Positions 3,009 through 64,000 of a stretch of DNA of 64,000 bases are shown here, in pieces. The stretch comes from Candidatus Omnitrophota bacterium (lineage in GTDB: Bacteria; Omnitrophota; Omnitrophia; Omnitrophales; Aquincolibacteriaceae): contig JAHFHG010000001.1 of NCBI GenBank assembly GCA_023247035.1, positions 2,021-66,020 of the forward strand, in the 5' to 3' direction. The notes under the pieces are model-generated. The model searched no databases, had not been told where the DNA came from, and saw only the letters and a program-made list of their open reading frames with translations. Numbering within the stretch: position 1 is the stretch's first letter; every line of letters starts with the position of its first letter. The translations under genes were made by a program, and so were the position numbers.

Positions 3009-3899
3009 ATGCGGAATGAAAAATGCGAGTTCACGGAAGCTGAAGAAGACACCTTCGAGCCTAAGGAGAATCCTATTTTAAGCCACGAGGAATTGAATTC
3101 CGACGAAAACGCTGGGCCGTCCCAGCCGGAATCGCTGGAAAAGGGGCGCATTAAAATCCGTGTGCGGAATTTAAGTTTGTTCTACGGCCCGACCCAGGCT
3201 TTGAAACAGGTCTATATGAAGATTTTGCGCCAGTCCGTGACGGCGCTGATCGGCCCTTCGGGATGCGGGAAGTCCACCTTTTTGCGGACGCTGAACCGGA
3301 TGAACGATACCATTCCCGGAGTGCGGATTGAGGGGCGGGTCCGGATCGATAACATTGATATTTACGGGCCTCAAATCAATGTCGTCGCTTTGCGCCGCGT
3401 GGTCGGGATGGTTTTTCAAAAATCAAACCCCTTTCCGAAAAGTATTTTTGACAACGTCGCTTACGGCCCGCGCCTGCACCGCATTAAAAGCCGGATTACC
3501 TTGAAGGAAATCGTCGAATCAAGTTTAAAAAAGGCGGCGTTGTGGGATGAGGTCAAGGACCGCCTTCATCAGTCCGCAATGGAGCTTTCCGGCGGCCAGC
3601 AGCAGAGGCTTTGCATTGCGAGGGCCTTGGCCGTGAATCCCGAGATTCTTTTAATGGACGAGCCGGCTTCCGCCCTCGACCCCATTTCTACGGGAAAAAT
3701 CGAAGAGCTGATCCATTCCCTGAAAGAAAATTACACGATCATTATCGTGACTCATAATATGCAGCAGGCGGCAAGGATCAGCGACTATACGGCTTATTTT
3801 TACCTTGGCTCCCTGGTGGAATATGGAACCACCAAGAAAATTTTTACCAATCCCGAACGCAAAGAGACCGAAGATTACGTGACCGGCAGGTTCGGGTAA
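3009..3899 (+). CDS. pstB: Phosphate ABC transporter ATP-binding protein PstB. The true start is probably downstream of 3009, for example TTG near 3092
   Basis: Walker [13 protein letters not shown] signature LSGGQQQRL and Walker [13 protein letters not shown] are present. The ORF track gives a roughly 50-aa acidic N-terminal extension running into the repeat-filled spacer, which is atypical for PstB. Confidence 0.85.
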
Positions 3900-3926: not shown

Positions 3927-4592
3927 ATGTCCAGACATTTTCACGAAGAGCTTGAGGATCTGAAAAAAAGGCTCATCGAAATGAGCCTGCTCGTGGAAGA
4001 GGCAATTCAACGGGCGATTGAAGGGCTCCTTTATCGGAACACCGAGGCCGCTAAAGAAGTTTTCAAAAAGGAAAAGGTGATCAACAAACTTGAAATCGAG
4101 ATTGACGATAAGGGGCACAGTCTGCTGGCCCTTGGCCAGCCTATGGCCGTAGATATGCGGCTTATTACCTCCATTCTCAAAATCAATACGGACCTCGAGC
4201 GGCTGGGAGACCACGCCGTGAATATCGCCGAGCGGGCCCTTCTGCTTGCCGAAGAGCCTCGACTGGAAACCAACCTTTGTCTTCCTCAAATGACACAAGC
4301 TGTTCAGAGAATGCTCAGGATATCCCTGCGTGCTTTTATGACAGGCGATTTGGAGCTCGCGGGAAGAGCGCTTAAAGGCGACGACGAGGTGGACGCTTAC
4401 AATGATTTTCTTTATTCTCGAATGCAAGAGCTGATGGAAAAAGATGAGCTTGTCATCAAAACGGGAATGAAGCTTGTGCGGGTAGGGCACGATTTGGAAA
4501 GAATCGCGGACCTCGCCAACAACATTGCTGAAGACGTGATTTATTTAAAGCAGGGTAAAGAGGTCAGGCATCACCTCCACGATCCTGCCTAG
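3927..4592 (+). CDS. phoU: Phosphate transport system regulator PhoU
   Basis: 221 aa with two PhoU repeats (DxxGDHAVNIAE and ERIADLANNIAEDVIY). It is the last gene of the pst operon. Confidence 0.85.
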   Translation: MSRHFHEELEDLKKRLIEMSLLVEEAIQRAIEGLLYRNTEAAKEVFKKEKVINKLEIEIDDKGHSLLALGQPMAVDMRLITSILKINTDLERLGDHAVNIAERALLLAEEPRLETNLCLPQMTQAVQRMLRISLRAFMTGDLELAGRALKGDDEVDAYNDFLYSRMQELMEKDELVIKTGMKLVRVGHDLERIADLANNIAEDVIYLKQGKEVRHHLHDPA

Positions 4593-5385: not shown

Positions 5386-5774
5386 TGTGAGATTGTGTTA
5401 GACATTCGCTCCAATTTGTAATTTACTACATCAAGGAATAGGGATTTTAGACTTAGGCTGGCGCCTTAAGCTTCCTATTCCTTCTCTACTGGATTTCTCC
5501 TTCGCGGCCGATGCTTTAAAGAATCATGATACCGCAGCGCCAGAGCCGGCCAGCTCATCAAACGCAATAGGCGGATAAAGCCGCCGCGCAAGGGTAGCAT
5601 GTTTCTTAACCTTAGAAGAGGGATCATGCCGATGAGTCCAACGTCGTTCCAAAAAGAAAAACGGTTATTAATATCCTCGAGCGGGGCGTCCATTGCCGAT
5701 TTCAACAACCTCGCGCTTTCAGTCTGGCGGGCTGCAGAGGACTGGAATGCGATGCCGAAATCCTCGAGAGTGAT

Positions 5775-6980
5775 TTGATGCGGAAAATATTGCCCGATCC
5801 GGATTACGCGTTTAAAAAGATCAACTGGGCGAATATCCTATTTTTTACGGTGACCGGCGTCGGCGGGCTTGGGGTCATGCCGTTTTACCTGCACCGGAAC
5901 GGTTTTGTGCTTTCGGACTGGATCCTTTTTGCCGTTTATTTTGTTTGTTCGGGCTTGAGCATTACCGCCGGCTACCACCGGCTTTACGCGCACCGCACTT
6001 ATCAGGCCCGTCCGCTGCTTCAACTTTTCCTTCTTTTTTTCGGCGCCTCGGCTTTCGAACAGTCCGCCCTCAAATGGTCGTCGCAGCACAGGAATCATCA
6101 TCTTTATCTGGACACCGAACGTGATCCCTACTCGATCACGAAAGGATTCTGGCACGCCCACATGGGCTGGCTGGTCGGCTGGGACAGGACAAAGAATTTT
6201 GAGAACGTCGCCGATCTTCGTCAAAACGCACTGATCGTCCACCAGCACGCCCATTTTAAGCTTTGGGCGATTGGTGCGGGGATCGTGACGCCAGTTCTGA
6301 TCGGCGCTCTGGCCGGCCATGCCCTCGGGGCTTTTTTGATCGGGGTCTGTTTTCGAATTGTCTTCGTTCAGCAGATGACTTTTTGCATCAATTCCTTTTG
6401 CCACTTGATCGGGACGGCCAATTACGATCCGAGCACGAGCGCGCGGGACCACTGGTTCATCGCTCTTTTGACCTTCGGAGAGGGCTACCATAATTTTCAC
6501 CACCGGTTTCCGAGCGATTATCGAAACGGCATCCGCTGGTATCACTGGGACCCGAGCAAGTGGGCCATCTCGCTCTTTCGCAGGGCAGGACAGGCCTATA
6601 ATCTTCGCAAAGCGCCTTATTTTCATATTCTGCACGCGCGCCTGGCCAGCCAAAATCGCCAGGTCCGGTTACGGCTTGCCCAAAAACTGTCCCGCCACCC
6701 GGACTTCATCCGGTTCAACCGCGCCTTTGAACGTCATTATCAAAAACTTCAGCGGGCTTTTTCGAGTTTCCAATCCGCGGCGACAGAATACCAGCGGCTT
6801 GTCCGCGCCAAGGTCGCTTCACGGGCATCCGTGGAGGGAATTAAAAAAACAGCTTTAGAAAATCTCCGCGCCCGCAAAGAGGCATTCCGTTCTACGTATC
6901 AGAAATGGGTGAGGTATATTGAAGCCCGGCTGGCCGTTGAAGCGTTGCCGCTGCAAGCAGACAAAAGGGGGATTTCGTGA
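5775..6980 (+). CDS. Acyl-lipid/acyl-CoA delta-9 fatty acid desaturase with a roughly 100-aa charged C-terminal extension
   Basis: Three histidine boxes: HRLYAHRTY, HRNHHLYLDTERDP and GEGYHNFHHRFPSDY. The N-terminal TM helices fit the membrane desaturase fold. Confidence 0.85.
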   Translation: MMRKILPDPDYAFKKINWANILFFTVTGVGGLGVMPFYLHRNGFVLSDWILFAVYFVCSGLSITAGYHRLYAHRTYQARPLLQLFLLFFGASAFEQSALKWSSQHRNHHLYLDTERDPYSITKGFWHAHMGWLVGWDRTKNFENVADLRQNALIVHQHAHFKLWAIGAGIVTPVLIGALAGHALGAFLIGVCFRIVFVQQMTFCINSFCHLIGTANYDPSTSARDHWFIALLTFGEGYHNFHHRFPSDYRNGIRWYHWDPSKWAISLFRRAGQAYNLRKAPYFHILHARLASQNRQVRLRLAQKLSRHPDFIRFNRAFERHYQKLQRAFSSFQSAATEYQRLVRAKVASRASVEGIKKTALENLRARKEAFRSTYQKWVRYIEARLAVEALPLQADKRGIS

Positions 6981-54280: not shown

Positions 54281-55345
54281 ATGAGAAGAGTGTTAGTTAC
54301 AGGAGGGGCGGGTTTTATCGGATCCCACCTGATGGATTTCCTTTTAGAGCGCGGGGATTATGTCCTCTGTCTTGATGATTGTTCCACAGGAACTCTAGGC
54401 AATATCGCCCCCCACCGCAAAAACCGCCGCTTTGAATTTGTGTCCGGCAGCATCCTGCAGGGAAGAATCGTTGCGAAGTGTGTCCGGAATGCCGACCTTA
54501 TTTTTCACTTTGCGGCGGCGGTGGGGGTCAGGCATATTGTGGAGAATCCTTTGAGATCCATTCGCGTCAATGTAGAAGGCGCGGCGAATGTTTTGGAAAA
54601 GGCATTCCGCTACAAAAAAAAGATTATCCTCGCCTCATCCTCCGAAGTTTACGGAAAAAGCACGAATCTTCCTTATCGTGAAGAGGATGACCGCCTTTTG
54701 GGCCCGACCACGATTAACCGCTGGTCTTACGCGGCCGGCAAAGCGATTGATGAGCACTTGGCTCTGAACTACGGAAGGCAGGGGCTCGCGGTCGTTATCC
54801 TGCGTTTTTTTAATACCTACGGCCCCAGGATAAATGAAGAGGCCTACGGCACCGTGATTGCGCAATTTATCCGGCAGGCTTTTTTGGGCGAGCCCTTGAC
54901 CGTTCACGGGGACGGCAAGCAGGTAAGGTGTTTTTCTTACATCACGGATATCGTGGCCGGAATCATTAAAGCTTCCGAAATCAAGGCCGCGGAGGGAGAA
55001 ATTTTCAATCTCGGCAATCCGAACCCTTCTACGATTATGGAATTGGCCGAATCCGTGAAGCGTGTGACGGCGAGCCTTTCGCCGATTCAACAGGTGCCTT
55101 ACCGGGATTATTACGGCCAGAGTTACGAAGACACGCCGGTCCGTATCCCTGACATTTCGAAGGCCAAGCAGATTCTGAACTTCGAGCCGTTCGTTTCGCT
55201 CGCCGAAGGCCTGCGGAGGACGGTCGCGTGGTGCCGCCGGAATTACCGGTCGAGTTTGGAGCCGGAGCCGGCAAACGGCCGGCCGAAAACTCCACCCGCC
55301 GTTTTGCTTGACAAGCTGAAGCGGCAGGGGCGGCCGCTCTCCTGA
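54281..55345 (+). CDS. NAD-dependent UDP-sugar epimerase/dehydratase (UDP-glucuronate decarboxylase/4-epimerase-like)
   Basis: VLVTGGAGFIGSHL Rossmann motif, a catalytic SSSEVYG region, and YAAGK. Confidence 0.8.
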   Translation: MRRVLVTGGAGFIGSHLMDFLLERGDYVLCLDDCSTGTLGNIAPHRKNRRFEFVSGSILQGRIVAKCVRNADLIFHFAAAVGVRHIVENPLRSIRVNVEGAANVLEKAFRYKKKIILASSSEVYGKSTNLPYREEDDRLLGPTTINRWSYAAGKAIDEHLALNYGRQGLAVVILRFFNTYGPRINEEAYGTVIAQFIRQAFLGEPLTVHGDGKQVRCFSYITDIVAGIIKASEIKAAEGEIFNLGNPNPSTIMELAESVKRVTASLSPIQQVPYRDYYGQSYEDTPVRIPDISKAKQILNFEPFVSLAEGLRRTVAWCRRNYRSSLEPEPANGRPKTPPAVLLDKLKRQGRPLS

Positions 55346-55385
55346 TTTTTAGATTTATCCCTCATTATTTTTTCAAGCTTTCCTA

Positions 55386-55415
55386 ATTGACAATGAATTG
55401 GGCGTTTTTGTATGA
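55386..55415 (+). promoter_or_regulatory. Sigma70-like promoter upstream of the IMPDH-family gene (TTGACA-18-TATGAT)
   Basis: TTGACA at 55386-55391 and TATGAT at 55410-55415. A perfect palindrome TTGCTCAA-gaaa-TTGAGCAA follows at 55455-55474. Confidence 0.4.
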
Positions 55416-55550
55416 TACGGCAAATGGAAAACCTTCTGCCGCAAAATTCCCGCTTTGCTCAAGAAATTGAGCAAGATTTTTTTATGGATCCCTGCAGCGT
55501 TTCGCCGTTCGCAAATCCGGCCTTAAAATTCCAATCCGAGGAGCCCTGTT

Positions 55551-56711
55551 ATGTCTGAATTTATCGGCCGCGACCGCAAGGCCCGGCGCGCTTACGGCTT
55601 TGATGAAATCGCCCTCGTCCCGGGGGAGGTGACGCTGAATCCGGAGGAGGTGGATATTCATTTTAAATTAGGCAATAAAACCTTTGAGATCCCCTTTTTG
55701 GCTTCCGCAATGGACGGCGTTGTGGACCCGCATTTCGCCGCGGCGATGGGCAGGCTCGGCGGGCTTGCGGTCTTGAATCTCGAGGGAATTTATACCCGTT
55801 ACGAGGATTACGATTCCATTTTAAAGGATATCGTTAAAGCGACTTCGGAAGAGGCTACGCAGCTTGTGCAGAAAATTTATCTGGAGCCTGTCAAGGAAAA
55901 GTTGATCGTCAAGCGGATTGAGGAAATCAAAAAAGCAAAAGGGCCTTGCGCCGTGAGCTCGATCCCGCAAAAAGCGGAGAAATTCGGCAAAATTGCGGAG
56001 GAAGCGGGCGCGGATATTTTCGTGGTCCAGTCCACCGTGACAACCGTCAATCACATTTCGAAATCCTATAAGGTGGTTGATTTCCGTAAATTCTGCAAAG
56101 AAATGAAGATTCCCGTGATTCTCGGCAATTGTGTCACTTATAAAGTGAGCCTTGAGCTTGCTGAAACGGGCTGTGCCGGCCTTCTCGTGGGCATCGGCCC
56201 GGGTTCGGCGTGCACGACGCGGGGCGTTTTAGGCCTCGGCGTTCCTCAAGTCACGGCGATTGCAGACTGTGCCGCGGCCCGCGAGGTGTACCATAAAAAA
56301 ACGCGCAAGTACGTGGCCATTATTGGAGACGGCGGGATGTCGACGGGCGGGGATATTTGCAAGGCCTTTGCCTGCGGGGCGGACGCGGTCATGGTAGGCT
56401 CGGCCTTTGCGCGCGCCAAGGAAGCGCCGGGCAGAGGATTCCATTGGGGAATGGCGACCCCGCACGCGAATCTGCCGAGGGGAACGAGGATCCGCGTCGG
56501 AACCACGGGGACTCTTGAGGAAATTTTATACGGCCCGGCCTCGCTTGATGACGGCACTCAAAATCTGGTCGGCGCTCTGCGCACGTGTATGGGAAACGTG
56601 GGCGCGCGCGATATCCGCGAAATGCAATTGGCGGAAGTCGTGATCGCCCCCGCCATACGCACCGAAGGCAAACTTTTTCAGGCCGCCCAGCGCGTGGGAA
56701 TGGGGAAGTAA
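55551..56711 (+). CDS. IMP dehydrogenase-family protein lacking the CBS pair (GuaB-related)
   Basis: IMPDH catalytic loop GIGPGSACTTR and TIM-barrel motifs. There are no CBS domains between barrel strands. It lies immediately upstream of guaA. Confidence 0.7.
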   Translation: MSEFIGRDRKARRAYGFDEIALVPGEVTLNPEEVDIHFKLGNKTFEIPFLASAMDGVVDPHFAAAMGRLGGLAVLNLEGIYTRYEDYDSILKDIVKATSEEATQLVQKIYLEPVKEKLIVKRIEEIKKAKGPCAVSSIPQKAEKFGKIAEEAGADIFVVQSTVTTVNHISKSYKVVDFRKFCKEMKIPVILGNCVTYKVSLELAETGCAGLLVGIGPGSACTTRGVLGLGVPQVTAIADCAAAREVYHKKTRKYVAIIGDGGMSTGGDICKAFACGADAVMVGSAFARAKEAPGRGFHWGMATPHANLPRGTRIRVGTTGTLEEILYGPASLDDGTQNLVGALRTCMGNVGARDIREMQLAEVVIAPAIRTEGKLFQAAQRVGMGK

Positions 56712-56848
56712 AAGGAAAGTAAAAGCTGAAAAGGGAACAGGAAAAATCACAATTAAAAATTTAAAAGTAGGATCCAATTGAAAAATGACGGATCATTTTC
56801 AATTTTAAATTGCGGTTTCCCCTTTTTCATTTTTCCTTTTGAATTTTT

Positions 56849-58387
56849 ATGAATGAAACTCTAATCATCCTCGATTTCGGATCCCAGTATACCCAGCTCA
56901 TCGGCCGTCGCGTAAGAGAGCAAAAGGTTTTCTCGAAAATCTTCCCTTATAACGCCCCGCGGGACACGATCATGCAGGAAAATCCGAAAGGGATTATCCT
57001 TTCCGGTTCGCCCGCCAATGTCTATCATCCCAAAGCCCCTTTGCCCGACCCGCGGATCTTCAAGGAAGGGATTCCGATTTTAGGGATTTGCTACGGGCTG
57101 CAGCTGATCGCCCATGTTTTCAAAGGAAAAGTCCACCGCTCAGCCAAAAGGGAGTACGGCCTGGCCCAGCTTCAGGTGGACCAGAGTGAAGGACTTTTTT
57201 CCGGCCTGCCGCGCGAGCTCACCTGCTGGATGAGCCACGGGGACAAACTGGACCGCCCGCCGCGGGGTTTCGAATCGATCGCTCACACGGACAACGCCCC
57301 GGTCGCCGCGCTGGCCGACACGAAGCGCCGGATTTACGGCGTTCAGTTTCATCCCGAGGTCGTCCACACGCCGCAGGGCGCCCAGATTCTCGGCAATTTC
57401 CTTTTTCAGATCTGCCAATTCAGAGGCGACTGGACGCCCGCCGCCTTTATCCAGGAAACCATCGAAAGAATCCGGCTGCGGGTGGGCGATGCCAAAGTCG
57501 TGCTCGGGCTTTCGGGAGGCGTGGATTCTTCCGTGACCGCGCTTTTGATTCACAAGGCAATCGGGAAAAATCTCACTTGTATCTTCGTGGACAACGGCCT
57601 GCTCAGGCTTAACGAGGCCGCGCAGGTCAAAAAGATGTTCCAGGACCACTTTAAAATGAACCTTCGATTTGTCGACGCGCGCCGGACATTTTTAAAAGAG
57701 CTGCGCGGCGTCGTCGCTCCCGAAAAAAAACGGAAAATTATCGGAAGGGTATTCATTGAGGTGTTCGAGAAGGAGGCCAAAAAACTGGGGCCTGTTCCGT
57801 TTCTTGCCCAGGGCACTCTTTATCCGGACGTCATTGAGTCCGTGTCTGTTTACGGCGGGCCCACAAGCACGATTAAATCCCACCACAACGTGGGCGGGCT
57901 GCCCTCCAAAATGAAATTCAAACTGATCGAGCCGCTGCGCGAACTTTTCAAAGATGAGGTGCGCCAGGTCGGCAGCGTCCTGGGGCTTTCCGAAGAGCTG
58001 ATGCACCGCCACCCGTTTCCCGGCCCCGGCCTTGCGGTCCGTATTCTGGGCGAGGTCACGGAAAAACGCTTAGAACTGCTCCGCCGGGCCGACTGGATTG
58101 TGATCGATGAAATCAAGCAGGCCGGCCATTACAAGGAGATTTGGCAGGCCTTTGCCGTCCTTCTTCCGGTCAAAAGTGTCGGCGTAATGGGAGATGAAAG
58201 GACTTACGAGAACGTTGTGGCCGTGCGGGCGGTCACGTCTCAGGACGGAATGACCGCGGACTGGGCAAAATTGCCCGATGATCTTTTAGGCAGGATCTCG
58301 AACCGGATCATCAATGAAGTGCGCGGCATCAACCGCGTCTGCTACGACATCTCCAGCAAACCTCCCGCCACGATTGAGTGGGAGTAG
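56849..58387 (+). CDS. guaA: GMP synthase (glutamine-hydrolysing) GuaA
   Basis: Class I GATase domain ([12 protein letters not shown]). ATP-PPase P-loop SGGVDSSV. The C-terminal dimerisation domain ends ...PPATIEWE. Confidence 0.9.
58364..58386 (+). repeat. Left copy of a 23-bp perfect direct repeat (CCCGCCACGATTGAGTGGGAGTA), formed by the last codons of guaA
   Basis: An identical 23-mer recurs at 59284-59306, bracketing the Fic-bearing islet. Confidence 0.7.
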
Positions 58388-58395
58388 CTGTTAAA

Positions 58396-59049
58396 ATGAA
58401 AAAATCCGGACGTTATAAAACCTCTCACCTGGTGGAAGATCAGTATCAGCCGGGGTCTGGCGGCCGTGTCCTACGGAATCTTCTTGGTATTAAAAGTAAA
58501 AGGGAAATGGATAGGGTTGAAGGCCGAGAACAGGCTCGCGCTTTGGAAGAACTACTTGGGAATTACGGGAGAAATCATAGATTCAGAGCGGCTGATATTT
58601 GCCGCATTCACAAGATTTGGCTTGGCCATGTTTATTCATGGGCGGGAAAGTTCCGTCAGGTGAACATTACAAAAGGAAATTTTTCTTTCGCCGCGTCTCA
58701 GCATAGCCCTTCTTTGGTGAGTGAATTTGAAAAAGGACCTCTTGCCAAGTTTACTCCCTGCAATTTTCAGTCGGAAGAGGAAATATGCAATGCGCTTGCG
58801 GTTATTCACGCGGAGTTGGTTTTGATTCATCCCTTTCGGGACGGCAACGGGCGGGCTGCCCGATTGTTTGCGATTTTAATGGCAGTGCAGGCAGGGCTGC
58901 CGCCTTTAGATTTCGGCGGACTCAAAGGCAAGTTGAAGCAGAAATATTTTATAGCGGTAGAGGCTGCGCTTGAGAGAAATTATGAGCCGATGAGGCAGAT
59001 TTTTCATTCAGTGGTTCGACGAACGATGAGAAGATTTGGAAGAAGATGA
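58396..59049 (+). CDS. Fic-family protein (class-I-like AMPylator/toxin; canonical HPFRDGNGRAARL motif)
   Basis: FIC motif HPFx[DE]GNGRxxR is intact. I found no [ST]xxxE[GN] inhibitory motif inside the protein. Confidence 0.8.
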   Translation: MKKSGRYKTSHLVEDQYQPGSGGRVLRNLLGIKSKREMDRVEGREQARALEELLGNYGRNHRFRAADICRIHKIWLGHVYSWAGKFRQVNITKGNFSFAASQHSPSLVSEFEKGPLAKFTPCNFQSEEEICNALAVIHAELVLIHPFRDGNGRAARLFAILMAVQAGLPPLDFGGLKGKLKQKYFIAVEAALERNYEPMRQIFHSVVRRTMRRFGRR

Positions 59050-59226
59050 TTTGCGTGCAATCCATCCACCCCCTTTTCGGAAAAAGACCTGCTTGCTCAG
59101 GTGAACGCCTTCGATGGCAGTGGAAGTCGAAACCGACAGGATAATCAGCTTTCTGCGTTCCGCAGGATCTTTCAGATAAGGGTTGGTTTCGCTCAACGGT
59201 TTTTGCACGGCCAAATTATAGCACAT
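59008..59226 (-). other. Small convergent ORF carrying the Fic-inhibitory motif [ST]xxxE[GN] (STAIEG). Candidate Fic antitoxin, or the Fic_N remnant of a decayed second Fic gene
   Basis: 72-aa ORF ...RRKLIILSVSTSTAIEGVHLSKQ... The motif is encoded at about 59110-59127 in the spacer between fic and the right-hand direct repeat. The low-complexity tail overlaps the fic 3-prime end. Confidence 0.3.
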
Positions 59227-59283
59227 TTATCGGGGCACTCTTGGGAAAGGTTTTCACTGCGCATTAAAAATTTCTGACAATCG

Positions 59284-59306
59284 CCCGCCACGATTGAGTG
59301 GGAGTA
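59284..59306 (+). repeat. Right copy of the 23-bp direct repeat
   Basis: Exact match to 58364-58386. It is followed after 4 nt by the ATG of an AT-rich ORF. Confidence 0.7.
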
Positions 59307-59310
59307 AAAA

Positions 59311-59856
59311 ATGGACATCAATGTTATAGCCAAAGTTTTACGTTATTTCGGACTCATTGGGATAGTTATAGGAACTTTTGGATGGATAGCTTATGACAGG
59401 GAAAAGGAAAACAAAGTCATCGGAGATTTATTTTTTAAAGATTTAAGGGCCGGCATTGAGAAGCTTTCTAATGTAGGTAATGGATATGATCACCAAACCC
59501 TTACGGAGAGTGAGTTTGTCAAAAGTTATCACGCCATACTTAAAGTAATTAAGCGAAATGCCCAAAATTTAAAGTATGAGCACGTAACAGGTATCGAAAG
59601 TAAGGCGATAACAAAATACCGTACCTGGGCAGAGGTGGAAAGTCCAGTTATAAATCTCGTGTCACCGCCTATTACGCTTTTATCCTCCATTAAAAAAGGA
59701 GAACAACCCGTTACTACGCTAGATGTATTAAAAAGTTGGATTACTGCTTATGAGATGAGTCAATATTTAATGTGGATTTTTATCAGTTTATTTATAGGCA
59801 TTGTCTTTCAATTCTTGGGCAGCGAATATGGTTATAAAGTAACAAAAATAGAGTGA
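59311..59856 (+). CDS. Hypothetical membrane protein (AT-rich, probably horizontally acquired)
   Basis: 181 aa with N- and C-terminal hydrophobic segments. Its codon composition is much more AT-rich than guaA or dnaE. Confidence 0.4.
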   Translation: MDINVIAKVLRYFGLIGIVIGTFGWIAYDREKENKVIGDLFFKDLRAGIEKLSNVGNGYDHQTLTESEFVKSYHAILKVIKRNAQNLKYEHVTGIESKAITKYRTWAEVESPVINLVSPPITLLSSIKKGEQPVTTLDVLKSWITAYEMSQYLMWIFISLFIGIVFQFLGSEYGYKVTKIE

Positions 59857-59898
59857 TGGACACAAAGAAGGGGACAACTCCAATGAAGGAACGGGTTA

Positions 59899-62800
59899 AT
59901 GCCGCACGTTGATTTTGTTCATCTTCACTGCCATACGCAATACAGCCTTCTCGATGCCGCCTCCAAGATAGCCCCGCTTTTAAAGCGCGCCGCGGAATTG
60001 AAATTTCCCGCCCTGGCGATGACGGATCACGGCAACCTGTTCGGCGCCATTGAATTTTATTCGCAGGCGCATAAGCAGGGGATCAAACCGATTATCGGAA
60101 TGGAAGCCTATATCGCCCCGGGCTCCCGCTTTGAAAAGCAGGCTCACGGGATTAAGGAGGCCTCTTTTCATCTGACGCTTCTGGCCCGCAATGAAACGGG
60201 ATATCAAAACCTGATGAAGCTGACCAGCGCGGGCTACCTCGAGGGCTTTTACTACCGTCCGAGGATCGATAAAGAAATCCTCCAGCAGCATTCCGAAGGG
60301 CTTCTTGCGCTGACCGGCTGCCTTAAAGGCGAGGTCCCTTATTATGTCCGTAACGACCAGCCTCACGAAGCCAAAAAGGCGCTCGGCGAGTTTGTGAACA
60401 TTTTCGGGAAGGAAAATTTTTATTTTGAGGTGATGGATCAAGGGCTTGAACCTCAAAAGAAAATCGCGAATGAATATCTAAAACTATCCAAAGAATACGG
60501 CCTCAAACTCGTCGCCACCAACGACTGCCACTACATTTACCGCCAGCACGCCCAGGCTCACGACGCTCTCATTTGTATTGGGACCGGCTCCACGCTGGAT
60601 GAGCCGAACCGGATGCGCTATCAAGGGGACAATTTTTATATGAAATCGGCCGAAGAAATGAAAGAGCTTTTCAAGGATATTCCCGAGGCTGTTAAGACCA
60701 CGGTCGAAATCGCCGAGCGCTGCAATCTTGAACTGGATTTTTCGAAAACCCATCTGCCCCATTTTGAGCCTCCGCCGGGAAAAACGCAGCGGGGTTATCT
60801 GGAGGAGCTTTGTCTGATCGGGATGAAGACTCGTTTTAAAGGCGCGGAAATCTCTGAGGAATATCCAAAGCGGCTGCGGTATGAGATCGAACTGATTTGC
60901 CGGATGGGCTACACCAGTTATTTTTTAATTGTTTGGGACTTTATCCGGTATGCCCGGGAGCGCGGCATTCCGGTCGGCCCCGGCCGCGGATCTGCGGCGG
61001 GCAGCCTTGCGGCTTATGTTTTAGGCATTACCAATATTGATCCGATCCAGCACGGCCTTATCTTTGAGAGGTTTCTAAATCCCGACAGGGTCAGTATGCC
61101 GGATATTGATATTGATTTTTGTTACGAGCGCCGGGACGAGGTGATCGATTATGTCCGCCGCAAATACGGGAGCGAAAACGTGGCCCAAATCATTACGTTC
61201 GGAACCATGGCCGCGCGCGCCGTGGTCCGCGACGTCGGCCGGGTGATGGGAATTTCTTATCAGGACGTGGACCGGCTGGCCAAGCTGATCCCGATGGAAC
61301 TTAACATTACGATTGAACAGGCCGTCGAGCGCGAGCCCAAGCTGCGCGAAACCATTCAAACCGATTCGCGGATCGCCCAGCTCATTGAAACCTCCAAGGC
61401 CTTGGAAGGGCTTTCGCGCCACGCCTCGACCCACGCGGCCGGCGTGGTCATTTCGGACGTTCCTCTGACGGAGTACGTACCCCTCTTTAAAGCCAATGAG
61501 CAGGTCTCCACGCAATACACAATGAAAGACCTCGAGAAGATCGGCCTTCTTAAAATGGATTTCCTCGGCTTGAAAACGCTCACCATGATTCAGCACACGC
61601 TGAAAATCATCAAACGGACGAGGGGAATAGAACTGGATATTGACAACATTCCCTTTGACGATCCTCCGGCCTACGAAATGCTGGGCAGGGCTGAAGCGGC
61701 CGGCGTGTTCCAGCTTGAAAGTTCGGGCATGCGCGACCTGCTTAAAAAAATGAAGCCCGCCAAGTTTGACCATTTAGTGGCGCTCTTGGCCCTTTATCGT
61801 CCGGGTCCTTTGGGCAGCGGAATGGTGGATGATTTCATTCAGCGTATGCATCAATCGTCTTTGATTAAGTATGACCACCCGGCCTTGGAGCCCGTTTTGA
61901 AAGAGACTTACGGTGTTATTCTCTACCAGGAACAAGTGATGAAAATCGTAAGCGAACTTGCCGGCTTCACCCTTGCCCAGGCCGATTCTCTGCGCCGCGC
62001 GATCGGAAAAAAAATTCCCGAAATTATGGACCGCGAAAAAAAGGCGTTTATCGACGGGGCCATGAAGAAGGGAGTGCGTGAGACCATTGCGGAGAAAATT
62101 TGGAACCTCATCGATTATTTTTCAGGATACGGGTTCAACAAATCCCACTCGACCGCTTATGCCCTTATTTCCTATCAAACCGCCTACTTGAAGGCCCATT
62201 ATCCGATTGAGTTTATGACCGCGCTTTTGACTTCTGAAATGGGCAATACGGATAAAGTCGTCCAGCATATTGAAGAAAGCAAAAAAATGGGGATTCAGGT
62301 CCTGCCGCCTTCCGTGAATGAAAGTTTCGCGGAGTTTACCTGTGTCGGGGACAGGATCCGCTTCGGCCTGACGGCCGTAAAAAATGTGGGAACCACAGCC
62401 ATCGAATCCATTCTGGATTCGCGCCGGAAGATCGGGCCCTTCAAGTCCTTTTTTGATTTTACCGAGCGCGTGGATTTGCGCGTCTGCAACCGGAAGGTTT
62501 TAGAGAGCCTCATTAGATGCGGCGCGTTCGACCCATTCCGGCTTCACCGCTCTCAATTGATGGCGCTGGTTGATCAAGGGCTCGAGCGCGGGGCGAATTT
62601 TCAGAAAGACAGGACTCGCGGGCAATTTTCTTTTTTTGGAAGCCGCGCCGACGTTGCGACCTTTCAGGAAAGCGGAATGGAAATCCCGGACATTCCGGAA
62701 TGGCCTGAAAGCCAGAAGCTCGCTTATGAGCGGGAACTCCTTGGATTTTACGTGAGCTCTCATCCGCTGGCGAATTATTCCAAGATTTTGAAAAATTACG

Positions 62801-63339
62801 CCACGGCTTCAATCTGTTCGCTTCACGAACTGCCCGATCAGGCGGAAGTTACCCTCGGGGGCTTGATTGACAACATCAAAGAAATTTTGACCAAAAAGGG
62901 AGACAAAATGGCCTTTTTGGCGCTGCAGGACCTGAGCGGATCCTGTGAGGTTGTCGTCTTTCCTGAGGTCTACAAAAATTTTCTTTCGCTCATCAAAAAA
63001 GACGCGCCGATTTTTGTCAAAGGCAAGATGAATACGCGCGAAGACATTCCCAAAGTCCTGGCTGAGGAAATCGTACCGATTGAAGAGGTGCAGGCCCGTT
63101 TCACGCGTTCGCTTTTTATTGAATTGCAAACGGCCGGCCTGGATCCCAATTTATTGAAGGATGTCCGCGGGCTTCTTTCCAATTATCGCGGCTCCACGCC
63201 GGTGTATATTCATTTTCGTGACCCGGCAGGCAAGTCCGCAGTTATTTATTTGGGAGAAGACTTGAAAATAAAAACGACGGACGAACTTTTGTCGGTCCTG
63301 GAAAAATTAGTGGGCGAAAATAGCATTAAGATACGATAA
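59899..63339 (+). CDS. dnaE: DNA polymerase III alpha subunit DnaE
   Basis: 1146 aa with a PHP domain (FVHLHCHTQYSLLDA) and polymerase core motifs (PDIDIDF, GLLKMDFLGLKTL). Confidence 0.9.
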   Translation: MPHVDFVHLHCHTQYSLLDAASKIAPLLKRAAELKFPALAMTDHGNLFGAIEFYSQAHKQGIKPIIGMEAYIAPGSRFEKQAHGIKEASFHLTLLARNETGYQNLMKLTSAGYLEGFYYRPRIDKEILQQHSEGLLALTGCLKGEVPYYVRNDQPHEAKKALGEFVNIFGKENFYFEVMDQGLEPQKKIANEYLKLSKEYGLKLVATNDCHYIYRQHAQAHDALICIGTGSTLDEPNRMRYQGDNFYMKSAEEMKELFKDIPEAVKTTVEIAERCNLELDFSKTHLPHFEPPPGKTQRGYLEELCLIGMKTRFKGAEISEEYPKRLRYEIELICRMGYTSYFLIVWDFIRYARERGIPVGPGRGSAAGSLAAYVLGITNIDPIQHGLIFERFLNPDRVSMPDIDIDFCYERRDEVIDYVRRKYGSENVAQIITFGTMAARAVVRDVGRVMGISYQDVDRLAKLIPMELNITIEQAVEREPKLRETIQTDSRIAQLIETSKALEGLSRHASTHAAGVVISDVPLTEYVPLFKANEQVSTQYTMKDLEKIGLLKMDFLGLKTLTMIQHTLKIIKRTRGIELDIDNIPFDDPPAYEMLGRAEAAGVFQLESSGMRDLLKKMKPAKFDHLVALLALYRPGPLGSGMVDDFIQRMHQSSLIKYDHPALEPVLKETYGVILYQEQVMKIVSELAGFTLAQADSLRRAIGKKIPEIMDREKKAFIDGAMKKGVRETIAEKIWNLIDYFSGYGFNKSHSTAYALISYQTAYLKAHYPIEFMTALLTSEMGNTDKVVQHIEESKKMGIQVLPPSVNESFAEFTCVGDRIRFGLTAVKNVGTTAIESILDSRRKIGPFKSFFDFTERVDLRVCNRKVLESLIRCGAFDPFRLHRSQLMALVDQGLERGANFQKDRTRGQFSFFGSRADVATFQESGMEIPDIPEWPESQKLAYERELLGFYVSSHPLANYSKILKNYATASICSLHELPDQAEVTLGGLIDNIKEILTKKGDKMAFLALQDLSGSCEVVVFPEVYKNFLSLIKKDAPIFVKGKMNTREDIPKVLAEEIVPIEEVQARFTRSLFIELQTAGLDPNLLKDVRGLLSNYRGSTPVYIHFRDPAGKSAVIYLGEDLKIKTTDELLSVLEKLVGENSIKIR

Positions 63340-63375
63340 CTTCCTTTGCGCCAATGAGTTATATCTAAAATCAGC

Positions 63376-63404
63376 TTGACAATGAAGAAAGGATTTGCTA
63401 ATTT
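63376..63404 (+). promoter_or_regulatory. Sigma70-like promoter upstream of the HU/IHF-like gene (TTGACA-17-TAATTT)
   Basis: TTGACA at 63376-63381 and TAATTT at 63399-63404. An RBS AAAGGGAGG precedes the start. Confidence 0.35.
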
Positions 63405-63465
63405 TGCGTATCTTTAAGCAATTCAAAGAGTTGTATTCATTGCAAGCAGAAGATCAAAAAGGGAG

Positions 63466-63744
63466 GTGCGCGTGACAAAAAAAGATATCGTAATAAAAGT
63501 TTCAAACGAGACGAATCTCACCCAGATTGACGTAAAAAAAATTGTTCAAAGGACTCTTGATGTCGTCATTGAGAGCCTTGAACGGGGGGAGACGGTGGAA
63601 TTGAGAAATTTCGGTGTTTTTAAAGTCAAACACAGGCGCGGCCGCGTCGGGCGCAACCCCCGAACAGGCGACGAAGTTTCTGTCCCGGAAAAAAAAGTCG
63701 TGGTCTTTAAACCGGGTTTGATTTTAAAACAAAGGGTTAAATAA
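63466..63744 (+). CDS. HU/IHF-family DNA-binding protein (IHF-beta-like)
   Basis: 92 aa [24 protein letters not shown]...[41 protein letters not shown] start; an alternative GTG lies at 63472. Confidence 0.85.
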
Positions 63745-63790
63745 CGAATTTAGACCGTCACCTAGCAAAGAAAGATGGAGGAAGAAAAGA

Positions 63791-64000
63791 ATGTCAGAGA
63801 AGGGGAAAGTAAAGTGGTTTTCAAATGTCAAAGGATATGGATTTCTTGAAAAAGACGGCGGGGGAGAGGACATTTTCGTTCATTACTCGGTGATCCAGGG
63901 CGAAGGCTATAAAAAACTTGAAGAGGGTGAAGAAGTGACTTTTGACATCGTCAAGGGTGAAAAAGGCCCTCAAGCTGCCAATGTTGTACGTTCCAAGAAG
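63791..64000 (+). CDS. Cold-shock protein (CspA family), 3-prime end at or beyond the window edge
   Basis: [54 protein letters not shown]... RBS GGAGG lies upstream. Confidence 0.8.

Follow-up and report, generated by a model that had tools for sequence, protein, structure and literature searches.

The subject of this analysis is a stretch of 64,000 nucleotides (nt) from contig JAHFHG010000001.1 of a Candidatus Omnitrophota bacterium (assembly GCA_023247035.1), which is referred to below, at its full length, as the window. Comparison with related genomes shows that a small Fic module located between guaA and dnaE has been laterally acquired. The module consists of a Fic toxin gene and a convergent, antitoxin-like gene that overlaps its 3' end, and it lies between two copies of the last 23 nt of guaA. 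It may have arrived as a decayed or satellite integrative element, or the arrangement may be the scar of a recombination event. The junction is built of the following features:

56849..58387, forward strand: guaA, encoding GMP synthase (512 amino acids), intact, with the stop codon TAG (Pfam GMP_synt_C, 6.6e-47; GATase, 8.5e-47).
58364..58386, forward strand: direct repeat copy 1 (attL-like), the final 23 nt of guaA, which holds GAGTGGGA and a GGGAG run resembling a Shine-Dalgarno sequence.
58396..59049, forward strand: fic, encoding a Fic toxin of 217 amino acids (Pfam Fic, 1.7e-18).
59008..59208, reverse strand: antitoxin-like gene, a conserved convergent open reading frame (ORF) of 66 amino acids from GTG 59208 (72 amino acids from ATG 59226).
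59251..59283, forward strand: unique DNA that separates copy 2 from the conserved module at the right end of the islet, with no significant fold.
59284..59306, forward strand: direct repeat copy 2 (attR-like, or a displaced resident guaA end), followed by A (which completes TAA), AAA and ATG.
59311..59856, forward strand: AT-rich gene for a protein of 181 amino acids with two transmembrane segments (GC content 0.36; two hydrophobic segments by hydropathy).
59899..63339, forward strand: dnaE, the ancestral right-hand neighbour of guaA, recognised by its Pfam domains.

The junction was compared with 44 other loci that contain both guaA and dnaE, of which 43 are from Omnitrophota and one is from a metagenome-assembled genome (MAG) of Planctomycetia (L070). 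The distance from the guaA stop to the dnaE start is at most 130 nt in 37 of the 44 (median 97), and in three loci, including those of the two closest relatives (L011 and L012), it falls below zero because the genes overlap. The relatives share the gene order guaB-like gene, guaA, dnaE and HU. In the window, where the gap measures 1,511 nt, the Fic segment has therefore been inserted, as has the AT-rich gene, and the GC content agrees with this (0.56 in guaA, 0.47 in the islet, 0.36 in the membrane-protein gene and 0.51 in dnaE). The original prediction, made from the sequence of the window, had proposed aligning guaA-dnaE intervals from related genomes; the comparison recovers guaA abutting dnaE in 37 of 44 loci, the nearest of which has just 81% GuaA identity.

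The Fic gene carries an intact catalytic motif, as predicted. In particular, HPFRDGNGRAAR at residues 145-156 (nt 58828-58863) fits HxFx(D/E)GNGRxxR, and the Pfam Fic match scores 67.7 bits against a cut-off of 24. A regular-expression search of the 217-amino-acid protein found no internal inhibitory motif (S/T)xxxE(G/N). The closest entry in the PDB is VbhT (4.5e-16), and the protein matches PDLC04839, the PADLOC model of PDC-S04, over residues 6-208 on positions 3-203 of a 205-position profile (2.5e-69, 231 bits). It scores below the curated equivalogs of VbhT (NF045983, 61.7 against 800 bits) and EcFic (NF007672, 54.8 against 181 bits) and below the cut-off for mobile mystery protein B (TIGR02613, 54.7 against 124.4 bits). 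The fic ATG is situated 8 nt past the guaA stop, with the GGGAG of the guaA end 11 nt upstream of it, and fic has no recognisable promoter of its own. A metagenome scan with Fic returned just six loci, and a Fic scan of viral contigs gave no match.

Downstream of fic, the original prediction had assigned about 235 base pairs (bp) to a spacer. This was mistaken: the 234 nt concerned (59050-59283) are mostly conserved coding sequence of the reverse strand, and the cargo would therefore be a complete toxin/antitoxin module rather than a lone toxin. The antitoxin-like gene is convergent with fic, and their 3' ends overlap by 42 nt. Its product includes KPLSETNPYLKDPAERRKLIILSVSTSTAIEGV, in which the motif S-T-A-I-E-G equals the Fic-inhibitory S-x-x-x-E-G; the inhibitory motif of Fic proteins has been defined as (S/T)xxxE(G/N) (PMC13327609). 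A convergent small ORF that overlaps the 3' end of fic is present in 14 of 14 independent contexts, that is, beside every Fic homologue with readable downstream DNA, and the overlap spans 35-47 nt, or 4 nt in enterobacteria. These homologues are those of L003 and L004 (85% and 83% Fic identity), L005-L010, L092-L097, L098, L099 and L101 (54-65%), L050 (47%), and the IncHI plasmid pNDM-CIT and E. coli NCTC9064 (approx. 39%).

An alignment of 22 sequences of the small protein shows no variation at L, N, L, S, I and E and hardly any at T, P, Y, D, R, V, T and G, and the consensus of the motif is S-T-x-I-E-G. Over 31 codons, the small ORF of the window differs from that of L004 by eight synonymous and no nonsynonymous changes, and from that of L003 by ten and three; judged by these differences, the antitoxin-like frame is under purifying selection. 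No match to the protein was found in Pfam, NCBIfam, PADLOC or the PDB. Among 5.8 billion clustered proteins, the family accounts for just 10 entries, of which the three with a source name are all called 'hypothetical', and gene callers mostly miss the convergent gene.

The antitoxin-like gene is preceded by a promoter element:

59215..59223, reverse strand: extended -10 box TGCTATAAT (TGnTAYAAT), 6 nt upstream of the GTG start.

This element, the 6-nt spacing and the start codon are kept in the window, L003 and L004. A generic promoter scan did not flag the box because a -35 box is absent. The position of the -10 box suggests that the antitoxin messenger RNA (mRNA) is leaderless. Within the ORF, a terminator-like hairpin with a T-run is located at 59087-59102 (reverse strand), just after the conserved N-terminal 35 residues; the antitoxin transcript could be truncated there before it reaches the fic overlap.

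By its sequence features, the module is a class-I-like Fic toxin/antitoxin (FicTA) pair and a PADLOC candidate system of type PDC-S04 with an atypical gene layout. Like the class I systems VbhT/VbhA, EcFicT/YhfG and Fic-1/AntF, it combines a single-domain Fic protein, which has the catalytic motif and no internal inhibitory helix, with a separate small protein that bears (S/T)xxxE(G/N). The known class I antitoxins (VbhA, YhfG/EcFicA, AntF and C. fetus Fti) are encoded directly upstream of the toxin on the same strand, in one operon (PMC5033356, PMC13327609, PMC5651007), whereas here the partner lies downstream, on the opposite strand, and overlaps the 3' end of the toxin gene. Moreover, no similarity in sequence was detected between the small protein and VbhA, FicA or AntF, and the Fic protein falls far under the VbhT and EcFic equivalog cut-offs and thus outside the curated equivalogs. 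The likeness to PDC-S04 consists in the full-length match to PDLC04839 and in the neighbourhood of the homologues, which adjoin type IIG restriction-modification, DarTG-like, Gabija-like and toxin/antitoxin genes. PDC-S04 is, however, modelled as a single gene, whereas an unannotated convergent partner is present here and in all contexts examined. The defence role of PDC-S04 is experimentally unverified, and one test in a native host showed no defence activity.

In the proposed mode of action, the small convergent protein would hold Fic inactive, with the glutamate of its motif entering the ATP site, as VbhA does for VbhT. Transcription of fic would be by read-through from guaA, and the GGGAG of the guaA end would lie upstream of its ATG in the joint transcript; the antitoxin would be expressed from its own extended -10 promoter as a leaderless mRNA, and the 42-nt overlap of the 3' ends would add antisense control and transcriptional interference. 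GyrB and ParE are the precedent targets of class I FicT toxins.

The boundaries of the module can be drawn from its closest relatives. The homology that the window shares with L003 and L004 sets in 3 nt ahead of the fic ATG and fades at about 59250-59265, approx. 20-40 nt past the antitoxin promoter. Beside the module of L004 (1071-1120) there is a 50-nt fragment of the 3' end of transfer-messenger RNA (tmRNA; Rfam, E = 5e-5, with an internal 328 nt missing), and a tmRNA-like 3' end stands at the contig start of L003 (1-30). After their modules, L003 and L004 have in common a region of approx. 160 nt. E. coli and IncHI plasmids have homologous Fic/antitoxin pairs at the edges of islands, starting 4 nt past a tyrosine integrase gene. 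In L105 (3686-5776, pNDM-CIT) and L107 (9001-11091, E. coli NCTC9064), the tyrosine integrase gene is followed after 4 nt by the Fic gene and a convergent gene for a 52-amino-acid 'hypothetical protein' with SSTAIETG; the NCTC9064 island, at whose edge the pair is located, also holds an AlpA-like helix-turn-helix gene, YfjI, an inovirus Gp2-family gene and a nuclease/helicase pair.

Other homologues are embedded among defence genes and cassettes. In L005, 68 nt from the 3' end of an MmeI-like type IIG restriction-modification gene recur with 88% identity (4284-4351 and 6861-6928), and the copy lies beyond a block made up of a gene for a 194-amino-acid protein, a GIY-YIG gene and the Fic/antitoxin pair; type IIG restriction-modification genes also adjoin Fic in L050 and L099. 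In L094, three copies of the 5' end of hsdR (2119-2184, 3250-3481 and 5481-5712; 60-232 nt, 87-90% identical) are arranged around a Fic/antitoxin pair and a DarT/DarG-like pair, as if defence modules had been stacked there one after another and remnants of gene ends displaced. In L101 (4532-13545), the Fic/antitoxin pair is part of an array of toxin/antitoxin genes and small cassettes on the same strand (HicAB, PIN, RelB/YafQ, HEPN and others), which are separated by direct repeats of approx. 55-160 nt; this array may be integron-like.

The repeat that bounds the islet of the window is exact. As the original prediction stated, the 23-mer CCCGCCACGATTGAGTGGGAGTA, which is the end of guaA, occurs at 58364-58386 and 59284-59306; no third match with up to three mismatches exists in the window, no match arose in 100 shuffles, and none is expected by chance. 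Copy 1 is followed by G, which gives the stop TAG, and copy 2 by A, which gives TAA, and the identity of the two copies ends at this third base of the stop codon, where coding constraint ends. On the upstream side, no similarity extends beyond the 23-mer (p approx. 0.1); the two upstream sequences are unrelated, and the repeat edges are therefore sharp. GuaA of the window shows 60-81% identity with the GuaA proteins of Omnitrophota and of other phyla, the best matches being Candidatus Omnitrophota MAGs (63-81%), and in L026, which belongs to a distinct lineage, the last 32 nt of guaA are identical to those of the window. There are no tRNA or tmRNA genes in the window.

Two contigs of the same species from other samples, L001 and L002, differ from the window at copy 2, which has G at window position 59290 (2234 in L001 and 939 in L002), so that the repeat matches there at 22 of 23 positions; among the three, it is perfect only in the window. 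The mismatches in L001 and L002 are reciprocal, attL being (A, TAG) and attR (G, TAA). Copy 2, and not copy 1, also takes part in a dyad:

59278..59296, no strand: junction palindrome CAATCG-CCCGCCA-CGATTG, an attP-like dyad with 6-7-bp arms and a 5-7-nt spacer.

In L001 and L002, this palindrome reads CAATCGC-CCGCC-GCGATTG, with 7-bp arms owing to the G at 59290, and the general form of the dyad is CAATCG(N5-7)CGATTGAGTGGGA. Its chance probability, in a post hoc test, is 0.1% by a strict and 2.8% by a lenient definition.

When L001 (1-1331) is aligned with the window (57105-58387), the 940 nt at the 5' side of guaA are just 77.7% identical, and from about 58048/58049 onward, the islet and dnaE included, identity is at least 99.7%. 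This switch marks either a site of recombination within guaA or a chimera at the end of the contig.

The junction has also received other DNA. With the window counted, 7 of 45 genomes have unrelated cargo between guaA and dnaE. In L050, a type IIG restriction-modification gene stands right after the guaA stop, together with a membrane-protein gene and a Fic/antitoxin pair of its own (47%); L059 has genes for small membrane proteins, L031 a DUF3800-like gene and L055 a four-helix-bundle gene. The guaA-dnaE junction is thus a minor hotspot for small cargo in Omnitrophota.

Site-specific integration at the guaA end, by an integrase since lost or acting in trans, is a tentative explanation of the islet and the most probable of those considered, with a probability that we set somewhat short of even. 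A small circular element, or a larger island later cut by deletion, would have carried an attP that mimics the guaA end and would have recombined with the guaA 3' end with the help of a tyrosine-type recombinase, either lost since then or provided in trans. Integration would have regenerated guaA (attL, TAG) and left attR (copy 2, TAA) before the gene that was then downstream, and the addictive toxin/antitoxin pair would be the surviving part of the element. The empty-site junction would read AGCAAACCT-23mer-AAAAATGGAC and the circle junction CTGACAATCG-23mer-GCTGTTAAAATG. Direct repeats of the target 3' end that flank the insert, with guaA regenerated, have the form of a classical integration scar; the dyad at copy 2 is proposed to be what an attP core would leave at attR, and an attB x attP crossover would give the reciprocal mismatches seen in L001 and L002. 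The homologous pairs next to tyrosine integrases in E. coli and IncHI plasmids, and the tmRNA 3'-end fragment beside the module of L004, also speak for this route.

There are precedents for the site, as had been pointed out. It has been shown experimentally that the att site of GIsul2 is the guaA 3' end, with the core GAGTGGGA, and that the GIsul2 integrase also moves, in trans, an integrase-less unit bounded by such sites (PMC9376610); Tn5801 integrates at the guaA 3' end with 11-bp repeats (PMC4844618). The islet resembles these guaA islands (GIsul2 and Tn5801-like elements, and the CR2-sul2 unit, CIME-type) in its guaA-end direct repeat, in the regenerated gene and in the GAGTGGGA core, which falls within the 23-mer, and integrase-less segments between such sites are movable in trans. 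It differs from them in that the unit measures 0.9 kb and has no integrase, no helper seen and no space for arm sites, and its host phylum is unrelated. Because the universal IEWE codons force GAGTGGGA, the shared core is not evidence of kinship with GIsul2.

A series of observations weighs against integration. The islet holds just fic and the antitoxin-like gene, and neither a motif scan of all window ORFs of at least 80 amino acids nor a Pfam scan of the 20 integrase-sized ORFs, all of them housekeeping, revealed an integrase, in agreement with the original statement. Apart from the module, the repeats enclose just 8 nt on its left and approx. 33 nt on its right, too little for arm-type sites. 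The closest Fic modules (83-85%, L003 and L004) have no flanking att-like sequence in common with the window, no circular junction or attP was found, and the 23-mer has no match in IMG/VR viral contigs. No empty site was found within the species, for which the only contigs, L001 and L002, both have the islet; exact-protein look-ups gave no match for guaA and dnaE, and for fic and the membrane-protein gene returned only the arrangement seen in the window. The guaA tails of 47 other loci were also checked, and no such locus has a second downstream copy of its own guaA end of at least 15 nt. The cargo in L031, L050, L055 and L059 is accompanied by no repeat, and no integrase-like ORF is evident in the ORF lists of these loci. 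The putative role of the small protein as the antitoxin of Fic is based on its motif, synteny and selection. What holds of the predicted scar of site-specific integration is the insertion, the guaA-end repeat and the regenerated guaA.

The same scar is explained about as well by one-sided homologous recombination (homology-facilitated illegitimate recombination) in an integrase-free hotspot, which we regard as possible, at roughly one chance in three. According to this explanation, the donor would have been a related lineage with other cargo after guaA; a homologous crossover would have occurred in guaA (or dnaE), the other end would have been joined illegitimately 23 nt before the resident guaA stop, and copy 2 would be the displaced resident guaA end and not an att site. 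Integrase-free hotspots between core genes are known, and displaced gene-end remnants occur in Rhs/CDI orphan arrays; the junction shares with them conserved core flanks, variable small cargo and, in related loci, partial gene-end duplicates. The unrelated cargo of 7 of 45 genomes, with no evident integrase in the four inspected and the repeat confined to the window, is in line with such a hotspot, as are the truncated, diverged gene ends, which are not att sites, that flank Fic modules in L005 and L094. The sharp switch near 58048 within the guaA of L001 (77.7% identity before it and at least 99.7% after it), the identical last 32 nt of guaA in the distinct lineage L026, and the fact that identity of the copies stops where coding constraint stops also favour recombination, although misassembly at the end of the contig may have produced the mosaic of L001 as a chimera. 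However, an earlier clean insertion of fic 8 nt after guaA would be needed in an unseen donor, and neither the junction palindrome nor the reciprocal mismatches are predicted. In addition, the remnant of the window differs from the long, diverged ones of L005 and L094, and from the Rhs/CDI-type hotspots, in that it is short and free of mismatches, has sharp edges and forms part of a dyad at its junction.

Two further origins are very improbable. A target-site duplication made by the staggered cut of a transposase- or casposase-like enzyme, or capture of an integron cassette at a secondary site, would suit a small, gene-dense insert without a recombinase, and in L101 a Fic/antitoxin pair does stand in a cassette array with repeats of approx. 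130-160 nt. However, a repeat of 23 bp is longer than a usual target-site duplication, no transposase is present among the window ORFs tested, and no terminal inverted repeats were found at the islet ends, either among the 25 longest of 54 pairs in 55000-64000 or by reading the ends; for the integron route, no attC-like fold exists at 59215-59315 on either strand (z-scores +0.6 and +0.5). Hardly any weight is given, likewise, to a local duplication without mobile-element meaning, in which the 23-mer would have been kept since its GGGAG serves as the ribosome-binding site of the next gene. GGGAG does precede the ATG of the membrane-protein gene by 6 nt and that of fic by 11 nt, and the same guaA end lies before the start of dnaE in relatives, or overlaps it; a ribosome-binding site, however, needs about 5 nt and not 23 identical nt plus a stop codon, and this explanation accounts for the retention of a copy and not for its origin.

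The membrane-protein gene is a second foreign gene at the junction. As predicted, this AT-rich gene starts 4 nt after copy 2 (59311; GC 0.36), and the GGGAG of copy 2 lies 6 nt upstream of its ATG, which suggests that the gene followed guaA immediately until fic was inserted; the two genes may also have arrived in mirrored order. The protein has no match in Pfam, NCBIfam or PADLOC, and a word-index search was empty; an exhaustive search gave six matches among 1.84 billion representatives, one of them a 53-amino-acid fragment 100% identical to the query. Its only clear homologue with a context, 47% identical, is located in the gap between leuD and leuB of L102 (1085-1609; GC 0.33 against 0.51). 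The gene is foreign, given its absence from relatives, its GC content and the unrelated leuD-leuB location of the homologue, and these data suggest a rare family of mobile ORFans. The original suggestion of a second cassette is upheld insofar as the gene is foreign, but no third repeat bounds it. A candidate for a decayed third guaA-end copy before dnaE was not significant (p = 0.03, a 10-nt patch).

On the other side of guaA, a near-perfect palindrome, TTGAAAAATGA-CGGA-TCATTTTCAA, is located at approx. 56778-56802 in the space between the guaB-like gene and guaA (56712-56848, 32% GC). Rfam has no match for it and nothing relevant across 56000-61000; the palindrome may be an operator.

The islet itself is a routine scar of lateral transfer of modest novelty, and the useful by-product of its analysis is the small convergent gene. 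With an exact Fic-inhibitory motif and no family model, this gene is kept beside a clade of Fic genes from Omnitrophota to E. coli islands and IncHI plasmids. A far-reaching interpretation, which we consider unlikely, is that Fic and its convergent, overlapping antitoxin form a widespread unannotated two-gene system that PDC-S04 mis-models, a minimal cassette without an integrase, which recombinases acting in trans would capture at the 3' ends of highly conserved genes (that of guaA here and that of tmRNA in the closest relatives) and which would be controlled by protein inhibition together with 3'-end antisense transcription. If the small protein is an antitoxin, Fic genes of the PDC-S04 type would be two-gene systems, and tests with the single gene may fail or be toxic. 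The rule that class I antitoxin genes lie upstream of the toxin in one operon would then have an exception, one that adds antisense control.

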